Source of the DNA: Escherichia phage vB_EcoM_JB75
DNA: 64,000 nt
Strand: one strand, 5' to 3'
Sequence record: MH355584.1
A program made the position numbers and the translations under genes. This document shows, one piece after another, positions 32,118-62,249 of this stretch (position 1 is the first letter of the stretch; the number at the start of each line of letters is the position of its first letter). The notes under the pieces are model-generated. The model was not told the DNA's origin, did no database searches, and worked only from the letters and a program-made list of their open reading frames with translations.

Positions 32118-32190
32118 TGGGAATTAGCCAAGTTGGTAAGGCATAGCACTTTGACTGCTAGATGCAAAGGTTCGAGTCCTTTATTCCCAG
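32118..32190 (+). tRNA. tRNA-Gln (anticodon UUG)
   Basis: Cloverleaf by eye: acceptor TGGGAAT/ATTCCCA, anticodon arm TAGCA-CTTTGAC-TGCTA, T-loop GGTTCGAGTCC. Confidence 0.8.
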
Positions 32191-32191
32191 C

Positions 32192-32278
32192 GCGAGAATG
32201 GTCAAATTGGTAAAGGCACAGCACTTAAAATGCTGCGGAATGATTTCCTTGTGGGTTCGAGTCCCACTTCTCGCACCA
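32192..32278 (+). tRNA. tRNA-Leu (anticodon UAA)
   Basis: Acceptor GCGAGAA/TTCTCGC, anticodon loop CTTAAAA, long variable arm, encoded CCA. Confidence 0.8.
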
Positions 32279-32283
32279 AATTT

Positions 32284-32357
<74 letters not shown>

Positions 32358-32367
32358 ATTTAATTTA

Positions 32368-32441
32368 CTCCGTGTAGCTCAGTTTGGTAGAGCGTCTGCT
32401 TTGGGAGCAGAATGTCGTAGGTTCAAATCCTGCCACGGAGA
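32368..32441 (+). tRNA. tRNA-Pro (anticodon UGG)
   Basis: Acceptor CTCCGTG/CACGGAG, anticodon arm TCTGC-TTTGGGA-GCAGA, T-loop GGTTCAAATCC. Confidence 0.8.
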
Positions 32442-32443
32442 CT

Positions 32444-32533
32444 GGAGGCGTGGCAGAGTGGTTTAATGCACCGGTCTTGAAAACCGGCAGTCGCTCCGGC
32501 GACTCATAGGTTCAAATCCTATCGCCTCCGCCA
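32444..32533 (+). tRNA. tRNA-Ser (anticodon UGA)
   Basis: Acceptor GGAGGCG/CGCCTCC, anticodon loop CTTGAAA, long variable arm, encoded CCA. Confidence 0.8.
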
Positions 32534-32538
32534 GTTTT

Positions 32539-32614
32539 GCTGATTTAGCTCAGTAGGTAGAGCACCTCACTTGTAATGAGGACGTCGGCGGTTCGATTCC
32601 GTCAATCAGCACCA
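32539..32614 (+). tRNA. tRNA-Thr (anticodon UGU)
   Basis: Acceptor GCTGATT/AATCAGC, anticodon arm CCTCA-CTTGTAA-TGAGG, encoded CCA. Confidence 0.8.
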
Positions 32615-32615
32615 A

Positions 32616-32690
32616 GGCCCTGTAGCTGGAAGGTTCAAGCAAGCGACTCATAATCGCCAGATGGTGGTTCAATTCCACCCAGGGCCACCA
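32616..32690 (+). tRNA. tRNA-Ile/Met (anticodon CAU; T4-type tRNA-Ile reads AUA after modification)
   Basis: Acceptor GGCCCTG/CAGGGCC, anticodon loop CTCATAA, T-loop GGTTCAATTCC, encoded CCA. Confidence 0.7.
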
Positions 32691-32703
32691 AATTAAGAAT
32701 TAA

Positions 32704-32790
32704 GGGGAGTTATCCCGTAGAGGTAGCGGTGTGGACTGTAAATCCATTGTCATTGCGACTCGGGTGGTTCGACTCCATCACTCCCCACCA
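32704..32790 (+). tRNA. tRNA-Tyr-like (anticodon GUA), long-variable-arm type
   Basis: Acceptor GGGGAGT/ACTCCCC, anticodon arm GTGGA-CTGTAAA-TCCAT, variable arm, T-arm GGTGG-TTCGACT-CCATC, CCA; D-arm is weak so it could be a variant or pseudo-tRNA. Confidence 0.55.
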
Positions 32791-32794
32791 ATTT

Positions 32795-32869
32795 GGATGT
32801 GTAGCTCAGTGGTAGAGCAGTTGACTGTTAATCAATTGGTCCATGGTTCGAATCCATGCATGTCCGCCA
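32795..32869 (+). tRNA. tRNA-Asn (anticodon GUU)
   Basis: Acceptor GGATGTG/CATGTCC (two GU pairs), D-arm GCTC-AGTGGT-AGAGC, anticodon loop CTGTTAA, T-arm CATGG-TTCGAAT-CCATG, CCA. Confidence 0.7.
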
Positions 32870-32873
32870 AATA

Positions 32874-32949
32874 CGAGGCATAGCTCAGAAGGAAGAGCAA
32901 GGACCTTCTAAGTCCTGGGTCGTAGGTTCGATCCCTACTGCCTCGACCA
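32874..32949 (+). tRNA. tRNA-Arg (anticodon UCU)
   Basis: Acceptor CGAGGCA/TGCCTCG, anticodon arm AGGAC-CTTCTAA-GTCCT, T-arm GTAGG-TTCGATC-CCTAC, CCA. Confidence 0.8.
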
Positions 32950-57586: not shown

Positions 57587-57708
57587 ACCTTGGTGGGCGG
57601 CTAGATGGGAAACTGTAGAGCCAGAGCCGGAAGAACCGGTTTACACTGATGAAGAAACAGTATATAATGAACCAACGATAAATGACTTAATTGATATGGA
57701 GATGGGAC

Positions 57709-58194
57709 ATGATTACAGTAGATAAGTGGTTTAGAATTAATCGTGTTGATACAGGGCTATGTAATTACTGGCCGGAACTTAGTGCAGGTACTGTCTTTAA
57801 AGTTCGTGAACTTGCAAAAGAATGTGAAGATGATATAGAACCTGATACTGGAATTATTGAAATTGAACTTTCCGACGGAAAGATTATTAACATCTATGAT
57901 AAGCCAATTACATACTGGTGTTTGTGGAATACTGAATCCGTTGAAAATGGCGAAATTGAAGAAGTTGTAGAGAGAACTAGCCAAGATGTTCAGAAGCCTA
58001 AAGCCGCTTTTCAAGGTGAACGTATTTCATACGCATTAGCTAAATTAGCTGCGCAAGAAAATAATGATGGCTATGAAGGTAACCTGATGCAAGCTGCCGC
58101 AGAGTACATTGAATGGCTTGAAACTCAAATTTCTTTTTCTGACCAAAAGATTCGGCAATATAAGCGATTGCATCAAATGTTTTACAATACTTGA
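57709..58194 (+). CDS. hypothetical protein (start uncertain)
   Basis: Track ORF from TTG 57691; ATG 57709 behind GGAGATGGG gives 161 aa. Confidence 0.5.
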   Translation: MITVDKWFRINRVDTGLCNYWPELSAGTVFKVRELAKECEDDIEPDTGIIEIELSDGKIINIYDKPITYWCLWNTESVENGEIEEVVERTSQDVQKPKAAFQGERISYALAKLAAQENNDGYEGNLMQAAAEYIEWLETQISFSDQKIRQYKRLHQMFYNT

Positions 58195-58407
58195 AAAAAC
58201 TCAAAATTCTTTTTCTGACAGGACATTTTAATGAAAACCGAATTGGTTTATACTGAAAAGTTAAATGGCGGTAAGGTTTGGAAACTTTTTATTAAAGGAC
58301 ATTCTACGGACCCTCATATGACCACTTGCGTAGGAACCTATTCTCGTCCTACTAAAAAGATGATTCGACAGTATAAACGATTGCATCGAATGTTTTACAA
58401 TACTTAA
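58124..58407 (+). repeat. local direct repeats (about 20 and 34 bp, two copies each) around the end of the 57709-58194 gene
   Basis: CTCAAATTTCTTTTTCTGAC (58124) vs CTCAAAATTCTTTTTCTGAC (58199); TATAAGCGATTGCATCAAATGTTTTACAATACTT (58160) vs TATAAACGATTGCATCGAATGTTTTACAATACTT (58374). Confidence 0.6.
58231..58407 (+). CDS. small ORF sharing a duplicated C-terminus with the preceding gene (not in ORF track, 58 aa)
   Basis: Ends KMIRQYKRLHRMFYNT, near-duplicate of KIRQYKRLHQMFYNT at 58150-58194. Confidence 0.35.
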   Translation: MKTELVYTEKLNGGKVWKLFIKGHSTDPHMTTCVGTYSRPTKKMIRQYKRLHRMFYNT

Positions 58408-58449
58408 AAATAATAAATACCCTTATCTATTTAAGGTAAGGGTTTTATT

Positions 58450-58923
58450 ATGTTATTGACTGGCAAATTATACAAAGAAGAAAAACAGAAATTTTATAAT
58501 GCACAAAACGGTAAATGCTTAATTTGCCAACGAGAACTAAATCCTGATGTTCAAGCTAATCACCTCGACCATGACCATGAATTAAATGGACCAAAAGCAG
58601 GAAAGATACGTGGATTGCTTTGTAATCTCTGCAATGCCGCAGAAGGTCAAATGAAGCATAAATTTAATCGTTCTGGCTTAAAGGGACAAGGTGTTGATTA
58701 TCTTGAATGGTTAGAAAATTTACTTACTTATTTAAAATCCGATTACACCCAAAATAATATTCACCCTAACTTTGTTGGAGATAAATCAAAGGAATTTTCT
58801 CGTTTAGGAAAAGAGGAAATGATGGCCGAGATGCTTCAAAGAGGATTTGAATATAATGAATCTGACACCAAAACACAGTTAATAGCTTCATTTAAGAAGC
58901 AGCTTAGAAAGAGTTTAAAATGA
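58450..58923 (+). CDS. 49: recombination endonuclease VII (Holliday junction resolvase)
   Basis: 157 aa; zinc-binding cysteines CLICQ...CNLC and HLDHDHELNG; matches recalled T4 gp49. Confidence 0.9.
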   Translation: MLLTGKLYKEEKQKFYNAQNGKCLICQRELNPDVQANHLDHDHELNGPKAGKIRGLLCNLCNAAEGQMKHKFNRSGLKGQGVDYLEWLENLLTYLKSDYTQNNIHPNFVGDKSKEFSRLGKEEMMAEMLQRGFEYNESDTKTQLIASFKKQLRKSLK

Positions 58924-59457
58924 CAATTGAAAAAGAAATTGAAGGATTGATTCATAAAACTAATAAAGACCTTTTAAACGAGAATGCTAATAAAGATTCT
59001 CGTGTTTTTCCAACTCAACGGGACCTTATGGCTGGTATTGTGTCTAAACACATTGCCAAAAATATGGTCCCGTCTTTTATTATGAAAGCGCATGAAAGCG
59101 GAATTATTCATTTCCATGATATTGATTATTCCCCTGCTCTTCCATTTACTAATTGCTGTTTAGTAGATTTAAAAGGAATGCTTGAGAACGGATTTAAGCT
59201 TGGTAATGCACAGATTGAAACTCCTAAATCAATTGGCGTTGCTACTGCAATTATGGCACAAATTACTGCACAGGTTGCTTCTCACCAATACGGCGGAACT
59301 ACATTTGCTAATGTCGATAAAGTACTTTCTCCTTATGTTAAACGCACCTACGCAAAACATATTGAGGATGCAGAAAAATGGCAAATCGCTGATGCGTTGA
59401 ATTATGCTCAATCTAAAACAGAAAAAGACGTATACGATGCATTCCAAGCTTATGAGT
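58920..59457 (+). CDS. nrdD: anaerobic ribonucleotide reductase NrdD, exon 1
   Basis: In-frame stop 59463-59465 lies just inside the predicted intron; exon end placed at the U of UAUGAGU that can pair with intron GCUCAU. Confidence 0.75.
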
Positions 59458-60481
59458 TAATTTAATTCAGGCTCATGTAAAACCGGTCTAAACGGGGAAC
59501 CTCTCTAGTAGACAATCCCGTGCTAAATGTTCTTTTGAACTAAATGCCTAACGACTAACCGTGATGAATGTAGCGGTGTAGAATAGAAGCTAATGCTATT
59601 CGAAACGGCCGGCATCGAAAGATGAAGATATAGTCTAATCTGCATGGCGACATGCAGCAGTCATCTTGTATAAATAAGATTATCTTATGAATACGAGGTG
59701 AAACAATGAAATGGATAAAAAGACGTTGTACTAAAATAAAAGATAAAGACGCATTTACATACTTAGTTAAGTTTTCTAATGGCGACATTTATATCGGTTA
59801 TAAAAAATTTAGAACAATTAAAAACAAGCCCACAAACTGGAAAACTTACACAACGTCATCTAAGTATATAAATGAACGCTTAAAAACTGATACACCTACT
59901 AAATGGATAATTTTAAAAACATTTGATAGTTATAAAGATGCATTAAAACATGAAGAAGAGGTCATACGTAAGTATTTTTATAGCAAAAAATGTTTAAATA
60001 AATCCATAGGCGGTAAAAAGTTTTATAAGCATCCGGATACTGAAGAACATATTCAAAAATTAAGAGATGCTCATAAGGGTAAAGTGTTATCCGAATCTCA
60101 TAAAAACAATATAAAATCTTCTGTAGCTGAATATTATGCTAAAAACGGAAGATCTAAGGAACATGTGCAAAATAATATCAATAGTCGAAAAAGTAAAAAA
60201 CAAGTATCGATAAAGCTTAAAAATAAAACTTTTAGAAGTTTTAAAAAAGCAGCGGAATATTTAAATTGCACTGAAAGTGAAGTCGAAACTCATCCTCTTG
60301 TTTTGAGTATTAAGACTACTATTCATAAAGTTCCTGAATATGTGGTTGTTGACGGTATTAAGTATACGTCTTATATAGAAGCAGCTAAAGCGCTAAATTT
60401 TCATCCTAGCACTATAAAAGAACGTTGCATATCTATGGACTATCCAAATTTTGTTGTTTCATATAAACGGGCATGAATTTG
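59458..60481 (+). mobile_element. group I self-splicing intron in nrdD (sunY-type) carrying a homing endonuclease ORF
   Basis: Interrupts the NrdD frame; 5' core 59470-59700 has P7-like GACUA/UAGUC; ORF occupies the 3' part; splice sites inferred from P1 pairing, terminal G and frame, +/- a few nt. Confidence 0.7.
59706..60476 (+). CDS. GIY-YIG homing endonuclease (I-TevII-like)
   Basis: 256 aa; GIY-YIG motifs GDIYIGYKK and second YxG block; lies inside the nrdD intron. Confidence 0.8.
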   Translation: MKWIKRRCTKIKDKDAFTYLVKFSNGDIYIGYKKFRTIKNKPTNWKTYTTSSKYINERLKTDTPTKWIILKTFDSYKDALKHEEEVIRKYFYSKKCLNKSIGGKKFYKHPDTEEHIQKLRDAHKGKVLSESHKNNIKSSVAEYYAKNGRSKEHVQNNINSRKSKKQVSIKLKNKTFRSFKKAAEYLNCTESEVETHPLVLSIKTTIHKVPEYVVVDGIKYTSYIEAAKALNFHPSTIKERCISMDYPNFVVSYKRA

Positions 60482-61782
60482 CGACTCATGCTGAATATAA
60501 TGATGAAGTAAATACACTTTTCAGCTCTAATGGACAAACGCCTTTTGTAACAATTACATTTGGTACGGGAACTGACTGGACTGAACGAATGATTCAGAAA
60601 GCAATTCTGAAAAATCGTATTAAAGGTCTTGGTCGTGATGGGATAACTCCTATTTTCCCTAAGCTTGTTATGTTTGTTGAAGAAGGTGTTAATCTTTATA
60701 AAGACGATCCGAACTATGATATTAAGCAGCTTGCTCTAGAGTGCGCAAGCAAAAGAATGTATCCTGATATTATTTCAGCTAAGAACAATAAAGCTATCAC
60801 CGGCTCATCTATTCCTGTTTCTCCAATGGGTTGCCGCAGTTTCTTGAGTGTGTGGAAAGATTCAACCGGTAATGAAATTCTTGATGGACGTAATAATCTT
60901 GGTGTTGTAACACTGAATCTTCCTCGTATCGCATTAGATTCTTATATTGGAACACAGTTCAATGAACAGAAATTTATCGAATTGTTCAATGAGCGAATGG
61001 ATTTATGTTTTGAAGCTTTGATGTGTAGAATTAGTTCCTTAAAAGGAGTTAAAGCTACTGTTGCTCCTATTCTTTATCAAGAAGGTGCATTCGGGGTTCG
61101 TCTTAAACCTGATGACGATATAATTGAGTTATTTAAAAACGGCAGAAGTTCAGTGTCTTTAGGATACATTGGTATTCACGAATTGAATATTCTTGTCGGT
61201 CGTGATATTGGACGAGAAATTTTAACTAAAATGAATGCTCATCTTAAACAGTGGACTGAAAGAACCGGATTTGCTTTTAGTTTATATTCGACTCCTGCTG
61301 AAAACCTTTGTTATCGCTTCTGTAAACTTGATACAGAAAAATATGGAAGTGTAAAAGATGTTACCGATAAAGGCTGGTACACTAACAGTTTCCATGTTTC
61401 AGTAGAAGAAAATATTACTCCGTTTGAAAAGATTTCTCGTGAAGCGCCATATCATTTCATTGCGACAGGTGGTCACATTTCTTATGTTGAACTTCCTGAT
61501 ATGAAAAATAACTTGAAAGGTCTTGAGGCCGTATGGGATTATGCTGCACAACATTTAGATTATTTTGGTGTTAACATGCCGGTAGATAAATGTTTTACAT
61601 GCGGAAGTACCCATGAAATGACTCCTACTGAAAACGGATTTGTTTGTTCTATTTGTGGAGAAACTGATCCTAAAAAGATGAATACCATAAGAAGAACGTG
61701 TGGTTATTTGGGAAATCCTAACGAACGCGGATTTAATCTCGGTAAAAATAAAGAAATCATGCATAGGGTTAAACACCAATGA
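60482..61782 (+). CDS. nrdD: anaerobic ribonucleotide reductase NrdD, exon 2
   Basis: Glycyl-radical motif RRTCGYLG near C-terminus; Cys-rich zinc site CFTCGS...CSICG. Confidence 0.8.
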
Positions 61783-62249
61783 ATTATGATAGATTTTATC
61801 CTTGCGATTTTGTGAATGGCCCTGGTTGCAGGGTCGTTCTTTTCGTTACAGGTTGTTTGCATAAATGCGAAGGGTGTTATAATAAATCAACATGGAATGC
61901 TAGAAATGGTATTCCATTCACTGGTGAAACACTAGAACAATTAATTGAATGTTTGAATAATGATTATATAGAAGGATTAACTATAACTGGAGGAGACCCT
62001 CTCTATCCTGATAATCGAGATGTTATTCATTGCATCGTTCAAACAGTAAAAAATCTTTATCCCAATAAAAGCATTTGGTTGTGGACAGGATATAAGTTTG
62101 AAGATATTAAACAACTAGAAATGCTTAAATATGTTGATGTTATTATTGATGGGAAGTATGAGAAAAATCTTCCGACTAAAAAGCTATGGAGAGGATCAGA
62201 TAATCAGCGGCTTTGGTCAAATACCGATGGGGTGTGGAAACATGATTAA
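61779..62249 (+). CDS. nrdG: anaerobic RNR activating enzyme NrdG (radical SAM)
   Basis: 156 aa; radical-SAM cysteine triad CLHKCEGC; overlaps nrdD stop. Confidence 0.85.
   Translation: MNYDRFYPCDFVNGPGCRVVLFVTGCLHKCEGCYNKSTWNARNGIPFTGETLEQLIECLNNDYIEGLTITGGDPLYPDNRDVIHCIVQTVKNLYPNKSIWLWTGYKFEDIKQLEMLKYVDVIIDGKYEKNLPTKKLWRGSDNQRLWSNTDGVWKHD

Follow-up and report, generated by a model that had tools for sequence, protein, structure and literature searches.

Organization of the nrdD locus

The window, a stretch of 64,000 nucleotides from the T4-like Escherichia phage vB_EcoM_JB75 (MH355584.1), contains a split nrdD gene that is flanked by the gene for endonuclease VII (gp49; 58450–58923) and by nrdG (61779–62249). 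The best DNA matches are Tequatrovirus genomes, with about 99% identity. The Pfam profile NRDD is found on both sides of the interruption: the upstream ORF (58920–59465) corresponds to profile positions 1–141, and the downstream ORF to positions 145–562, starting from its residue 19, which is the codon GAA at 60505. The unspliced translation of exon 1 ends at a UAA codon (59463–59465), 8 nt inside the intervening segment. The locus is divided as follows.

58920–59457, plus strand: nrdD exon 1, 538 nt, ending ...GCU UAU GAG U; 97.4% nucleotide identity to T4
59458–60502, plus strand: predicted group I intron, subgroup IA type, 1045 nt; assigned from the RF00028 match, the T4 alignment and 605 records with an uninterrupted junction
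60503–61782, plus strand: nrdD exon 2, beginning AU GAA GUA AAU; 96.3% nucleotide identity to T4

Joining of the two exons as GAG U/AU GAA (the slash marks the splice point here and below) gives a NrdD protein of 605 residues that contains the segment ...AYEYEVNTLF... and differs from T4 NrdD by three substitutions, which are conservative. The predicted spliced junction is ...GCUUAUGAGU/AUGAAGUAAAU..., which may also be written ...GCTTATGAGT/ATGAAGTAAATACAC, and the correct join for nrdD in JB75 would be 58920..59457,60503..61782. The inspected records with this type of intron annotate two nrdD fragments with no join, the second of which starts either within intron sequence or past the exon boundary. 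These annotations carry spurious nrdD starts in place of the joined 605-residue coding sequence.

Some further features are seen in the neighbourhood. A pin-like gene upstream (57691–58194) is partly duplicated at its 3' end: 58149–58211 recurs at 58362–58424 as a 63-nt copy with 83% identity, and the copy yields a 58-residue ORF (58231–58407) with the same C-terminus, ...IRQYKRLH(Q/R)MFYNT. A 23-nt repeat (58121–58143 and 58197–58219) is located near the same gene. On the other side, nrdG of JB75 directly overlaps the stop codon of nrdD. T4 has mobC, a free-standing HNH endonuclease gene, between nrdD and nrdG, and other endonuclease genes occupy this interval in SA20RB (MobC-like) and in BYEP01 (a NUMOD3 protein).

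The insert begins with a complete group I core

A search of positions 59380–60600 with the Rfam group I model RF00028 gave a match at 59422–59657 that spans the full model (1–253) with 72 bits (E = 5.1e-18), the gathering score being 50. As controls, the same search gave 105 bits for the nrdD intron of T4, which self-splices in vitro, and 72 bits for a JB75-type intron from which the ORF has been naturally deleted. A scan of the whole 64-kb window at the gathering threshold listed ten tRNAs and missed the intron. Because the intron is found when 59380–60600 is searched alone, the miss represents a filter effect and not an absence, and other split ribozymes in windows of this kind could escape whole-window Rfam scans in the same manner. 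The ten tRNA genes lie on the plus strand at 32118–32946, and one of them (32706–32785) is barely above the Rfam threshold, with 30.2 bits.

The helices of the core were laid out by homology to T4, and each pair was then checked. All pairs are standard.

59451–59477, plus strand: P1, exon UAUGAGU (59451–59457) with the internal guide GCUCAUG (59471–59477)
59483–59657, plus strand: catalytic core
59483–59488 with 59607–59612, plus strand: P3
59492–59497 with 59516–59521, plus strand: P4
59502–59504 with 59510–59512, plus strand: P5
59522–59523 with 59546–59547, plus strand: P6
59529–59532 with 59537–59540, plus strand: P6a
59553–59557 (GACUA) with 59631–59635 (UAGUC), plus strand: P7, identical in sequence to P7 of T4
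59558–59561 with 59574–59577, plus strand: P7.1
59581–59586 with 59596–59601, plus strand: P7.2
59613–59616 with 59621–59624, plus strand: P8
59640–59646 with 59651–59657, plus strand: P9, with a GCGA loop

P1 forms with seven of seven pairs that are identical in T4, places the wobble U59457.G59471 at the splice site, and carries in its loop (59458–59470) the strand that takes part in P10. The P1 drawn by Rfam, in which the exon segment 59426–59457 folds as a hairpin, was dropped in favour of the exon/guide P1 common to T4. P3 and P7, the guanosine-binding helix, both form and cross each other in a pseudoknot, and the insert's first 200 nt hold the complete P3–P9 core. The presence of P7.1 and P7.2 between P7 and the 3' strand of P3 assigns the intron to the IA type.

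In a two-sequence alignment, the cores of JB75 and T4 are 68% identical, and all 49 named core pairs form in both introns. Twelve of these pairs are changed on both sides with respect to T4, including two or three each in P7.1 and P7.2, as compared with 0–2 in controls in which the 3' partners were slid by 1–3 columns. RNAalifold alone recovers the nested helices, with 13 compensated pairs. Taken together with the exon and ORF comparisons, these data indicate, with a probability that we put at about 0.93, that 59458–60502, located at the site of the T4 nrdD (sunY) intron, is a mobile group I intron that splices itself and, with its P7.1 and P7.2, is of the IA type.

The intron ORF and its control region

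The 3' portion of the intron is occupied by an ORF that starts 49 nt past P9, downstream of P9 and of a P9.1-like hairpin.

59706–60476, plus strand: intron ORF, 256 residues, GIY-YIG homing endonuclease, I-TevII paralogue
59661–59701, plus strand: P9.1-like hairpin, 59661–59671 paired with 59691–59701

The translated ORF matches PF19835 (GIY-YIG) over residues 9–86 with 26.6 bits (cut-off 25) and NUMOD1 with 25.3 bits (cut-off 22.8). Both margins are small, so the alignment to I-TevII is the stronger evidence for its identity: the two proteins align over their full length (257 aligned positions) with 56% identity and 72% similarity (E = 1e-101). The ORF also belongs to PHROG 314, homing endonuclease (E = 3.6e-29), and none of the NCBIfam models matches it. 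As a close homologue I-TevI found no backing, as no match to the td region with E of at most 1e-5 occurred among the tblastn matches listed.

The P9.1-like hairpin hides the Shine-Dalgarno sequence of the ORF (GAGGUGA, 59695–59701), and its 5' arm contains the T4 late-promoter motif TATAAATA (59669–59676). It folds with a minimum free energy of -17.3 kcal/mol (z = -6.2), and none of 200 shuffled sequences folds as well. A mechanism that combines a hairpin over the ribosome-binding site with a late promoter has been described for I-TevI and I-TevII as well as I-TevIII (PMC2988022), and by analogy the JB75 ORF is probably controlled in the same way.

Most of what the initial annotation had read from the letters is upheld by these comparisons. 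An interruption of the nrdD frame by an insert bearing a GIY-YIG gene agrees with NRDD on both ORFs and with PF19835 and the I-TevII homology on the insert. The group I core at the start of the insert, including P7 as GACUA/UAGUC, is recovered by the Rfam model that it had named as a check (72 bits, with the gathering score at 50), the core proper occupying the first 200 nt, and formal folding, its other concern, finds the group I pairings present (49 of 49 named pairs, and the nested helices by RNAalifold). The proposed P1, UAUGAGU with GCUCAU(G) and a terminal U.G, holds with the same seven pairs as in T4; so do the 5' junction after 59457, on the T4 alignment and the intronless alleles, and the sunY-like layout, in which the core precedes the endonuclease ORF on its 5' side. 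The exception is the 3' end.

The 3' splice site

The 3' end of the intron was assigned by comparison. The nrdD coding sequence of T4 is a two-part join that spans 2851 nt and encodes 605 residues, which leaves an intron of 1033 nt. Of all placements of a 1033-nt intron in T4, only GAGU/UAACG...CAUUG/AUGAAG yields the segment AYEYEVNTLF, and this is the reading of the crystallised T4 NrdD (PDB 1h78). The T4 site aligns with ...AUAAUG(60502)/AUGAAG in JB75, corresponding to the junction 59457/60503. A synthetic 147-nt sequence built across this junction matched 605 phage records at a coverage of at least 80%, with identities of up to 98.6%. The intronless alleles of T2 and vB_Eco_mar005P1 read GCTTATGAATATGAAGTAAAT at the junction and match the joined 59457/60503 sequence, so that the inserted block is exactly 59458–60502, with no repeated-base ambiguity. 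Only the Tyr junction makes the NRDD profile continuous (141 to 145). The 3' junction is therefore placed after G60502, and predicted splicing removes 1045 nt and creates the junction codon U/AU (Tyr).

The elements at the 3' end are listed below.

60471–60491, plus strand: P9.2 hairpin, GCAUGA, a 9-nt loop and UCAUGC, with pairs between 60471–60476 and 60486–60491
60492–60502, plus strand: 3' tail UGAAUAUAAUG; its last base, 60502, is the terminal G (omega G)
59636–59637 (UA, just after P7) with 60498–60499 (UA, tail positions -3 and -4), plus strand: P9.0, 2 bp
59466–59469 (UUCA) with 60504–60507 (UGAA), plus strand: P10, duplex energy -4.4 kcal/mol

P9.2 overlaps the stop codon of the ORF (UGA, 60474–60476), and its 3' arm includes the sequence ACUCAUG, which resembles a second guide sequence. 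Six pairs form in JB75, in the T4 nrdD intron (GUAGAG/CUCUAC, 10-nt loop) and in the T4 td intron (GGUAAG/CUUAUC, 9-nt loop). Four of the six are changed on both sides between JB75 and T4 nrdD, and all of these still pair. The pairs were compared by hand and by script, as automatic alignments put the one-base difference in loop length inside the stem; with the gap misplaced in this way, RNAalifold on the automatic tail alignment saw just three pairs. The P9.2 fold alone is weakly better than shuffled sequences (z = -1.85).

The tail conforms to a motif UGAA-N-A-N-A-N-UG that is common to JB75, T4 nrdD (UGAACACAUUG) and T4 td (UGAACAUAAUG). P9.0 comprises UA/AU pairs in JB75, UA/GC in T4 nrdD and UA/GU in td, and hence appears compensated across the three introns over its 2 bp. 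A second register of P9.0, in which bases 3–4 of J7/9 pair with tail positions -1 and -2, fits both nrdD introns and breaks in td (C-U), and was rejected; the same applies to a pairing of the tail with L7.1 (AAUGU with ACAUU) that is apparent by eye in T4 and is not kept in JB75. P10 occupies the same register in T4, where it has 3 bp, and in JB75 it may be extended by 60509–60513 with 59460–59464 (an AUUUA/UAAAU block). These two short pairings, P9.0 and P10, would position G60502 as the terminal G of the intron.

The initial annotation had located the 3' junction after G60481 by restoration of the reading frame, with an intron of about 1024 nt and UCG as the junction codon. Six in-frame G positions keep the frame open (60469, 60481, 60490, 60502, 60508 and 60547), and frame restoration alone therefore cannot decide the 3' junction. 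The frame is also restored by the acceptors 60469, 60481, 60490, 60508 and 60547, which were discarded on grounds of structure and of protein comparison. The T4 alignment that the annotation had suggested as a check thus bears out its 5' junction and moves the 3' junction by 21 nt to G60502, as do the 605 records and 1h78, with the corresponding changes in length (1045 nt) and codon (UAU). More generally, frame restoration together with a terminal G is insufficient to call the 3' splice site of a group I intron.

Two of the other acceptors merit a closer comparison. Splicing of the same intron after G60481 would read GAGU/CGACUCAUG, as opposed to GAGU/AUGAAG after G60502, and would remove 1024 nt with the codon UCG; in its favour, the frame stays open from G60481 on into nrdD. 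The product would have seven extra residues, with STHAEYND in place of a single Tyr, and HMMER places a gap of seven residues at this point against both 1h78 and a second solved NrdD, 9d3x. The 21 nt that follow G60481 occur in no intronless allele examined, the homologous position in T4 is not a splice site, and G60481 itself is one of the nine loop nucleotides of P9.2, the compensated hairpin. When the guide loop was paired with the 12 nt downstream of every candidate G, the P10-like duplex of G60481 reached -0.4 kcal/mol, joint weakest of the six in-frame candidates, against -4.4 kcal/mol for G60502. We consider this junction extremely improbable. The best duplex of this kind (-5.0 kcal/mol) belongs to G60490, which is also in frame and is followed by CUGAAU (60491–60496), perfectly complementary to AUUCAG (59465–59470) adjoining the P1 guide. 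With G60502 as the main site, G60490 could then serve as a cryptic or alternative site, from which a minor isoform of NrdD, four residues longer (AYE-SEYND-EVN), would result. Against this, G60490 is paired inside P9.2 and is without a P9.0 partner in register, the corresponding base of T4 is A, the T4 guide loop cannot pair with its own CUGAAC, and the product would be unlike any known NrdD; such an isoform is thus very unlikely. Opening of P9.2 would make G60490 a possible cryptic site.

A different reading is that the insert no longer splices, and that NrdD is either made as two polypeptides from a gene in pieces or inactivated. The two separate nrdD coding sequences with no join in the inspected GenBank records would agree with this, and nrdD is dispensable in aerobic laboratory growth. 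Yet compensatory change has kept intact all of the core helices, P9.0 and P10, the terminal G and the U.G pair of the 5' splice site, and natural derivatives with a deleted or frameshifted ORF retain all RNA elements. The exons are open and specify a protein that is nearly identical to the functional NrdD of T4, and the second fragment lacks its own start codon and ribosome-binding site where the exon truly begins. Loss of splicing is accordingly hard to credit, and a splicing-competent intron that ends at G60502 is the reading adopted here.

Proposed mechanism

Sequence and comparison place U59457, the 3' end of exon 1, in P1 at the 5' splice site against the guide GCUCAUG, and point to G60502 as the terminal G selected by P9.0 and P10. 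By homology to T4, guanosine-initiated self-splicing would restore the nrdD mRNA. Expression of the endonuclease is expected to follow the T4 pattern. In early and middle read-through transcripts the gene would be silent, as the hairpin masks its ribosome-binding site, and the protein would be made late, from the TATAAATA promoter within that hairpin. In mixed infections the endonuclease would then cut intronless nrdD near the insertion site, and repair would copy the intron together with adjacent exon sequence. Homing of the JB75 intron is in this respect inferred from the behaviour of its T4 counterpart.

Distribution, decay of the ORF and exon flanks

In the phage collection, 45 records contain the JB75-type intron (at least 95% identity) and 25 the T4 type. 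The 45 near-identical copies are spread over different Tequatrovirus genomes. Phages with the JB75 type include HY03, JK45 and IME537. A protein-level search returned no third intron lineage at the nrdD site, and a literature search found no paper that describes the JB75-type intron.

Several copies have a damaged ORF. In BYEP01 most of the endonuclease ORF is deleted, which leaves an intron of 345 nt (1270–1614 of its locus); 215Ecol030PP has a second, different internal deletion of the ORF; and in 236Ecol005PP the ORF is frameshifted into two pieces (1903–2674 of its locus). All three retain the core together with P9.1, P9.2 and the tail. This pattern of decay fits a loss of the endonuclease under continued selection for splicing.

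The exon sequences next to the insertion site also vary. Position 59456, which pairs with C59472, is G in the intron-bearing alleles that were read (T4, U5 and four JB75-type copies), and its counterpart is A (GAA-U) in both intronless alleles examined, T2 and vB_Eco_mar005P1. This silent G/A difference in the exon travels with the intron. Between JB75 and T4, ten silent changes are found at +8 to +38 of exon 2 (60510–60540), after which the two sequences are identical for 134 bases, until the next difference at +173. I-TevII cuts 13–15 nt downstream of the insertion site, and it binds and cuts within the +8 to +38 region of exon 2. Within about 90 nt of the junction, JB75 differs from the intronless allele of vB_Eco_mar005P1, a Mosigvirus allele, only at -2 and +37. 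The pattern of the flanks is consistent with co-conversion in the course of homing and, possibly, with a difference in target preference, without proving either of them.

Comparison with known systems

The biology of the JB75 intron is known; the intron represents a second lineage at the sunY site of T4 and brings little that is new in kind. The closest relative is the T4 nrdD intron itself, which has the same insertion site (GAGU/AUGAAG), identical P1 and guide sequences and identical P7 and P9 stems. The order of the parts is also the same: core, P9, a ribosome-binding-site hairpin with a late promoter, ORF, P9.2 and a tail that ends in G. The I-TevII protein has 258 residues and the T4 intron 1033 nt, as compared with 256 residues and 1045 nt in JB75. 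By contrast, sequence identity between the two introns is about 66% (core 68%, ORF 63%, tail 62%), whereas the exons are 96–97% identical. The sequences of P3, P4, P6a, P7.1, P7.2, P8 and P9.2 differ with compensation by their partners, and the potential for P10 is longer in JB75. Phage U5, whose previously sequenced nrdD intron is one of the accessions in the Sandegren and Sjoberg series, carries the T4 type with 99.9% identity. Such near-identity to T4 contrasts with the 66% of JB75, so that the JB75 intron constitutes a distinct, homologous lineage.

The T4 td intron, which encodes I-TevI, belongs to the same subgroup and shares with JB75 a GIY-YIG endonuclease, P9.2 and a tail of the UGAACAUAAUG type. 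It differs in its host gene and guide sequence and in the position of the ORF, which lies in the P6a loop and not 3' of P9; a shorter P7.1 loop is a further difference in this comparison. Two blocks of the JB75 core, 59487–59528 (42 nt, J3/4-P4-P5-P6) and 59541–59557 (17 nt, P6'-P7), are identical to td, and the T4 nrdD intron differs at several positions within both. This suggests that the core of JB75 is a mosaic, derived either by exchange between introns or by td-like ancestry of one part. Recombination between introns has been seen in T4 in the laboratory. We offer as a tentative idea, which is rather unlikely to hold in full, that a second, old nrdD intron lineage rivals that of T4 for the same site and that the td blocks are traces of natural intron recombination. 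If this is true, the JB75 ORF and I-TevII may differ in target preference, given their identity of 56% and the ten clustered silent changes between the two alleles in exon 2, and each intron-bearing allele may be immune to, or open to invasion by, the other.

Interrupted genes of related kinds are found in other phages. In Aeh1, where nrdA is split by mobE, an intron is absent and the two polypeptides assemble (PMC10448857). Both cases have a homing-endonuclease gene inside an RNR gene that is annotated in two parts; unlike in Aeh1, the endonuclease gene of JB75 is surrounded by a complete group I ribozyme. In Vibrio phage F88, nrdD is also interrupted (875–1627 of its locus), and the insert contains an HNH endonuclease gene. 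The 3' part of that insert resembles P7.1–P9 of JB75 (73.7% identity over 120 nt), and the insert probably represents a distinct nrdD intron of group I.

Among these systems, the JB75 intron stands as a natural partner of the sunY intron of T4, strongly diverged yet isostructural: 12 core pairs and four P9.2 pairs are doubly compensated. With an I-TevII paralogue at the same site, the two could be used together in studies of the choice of a distant 3' splice site and of endonuclease specificity.
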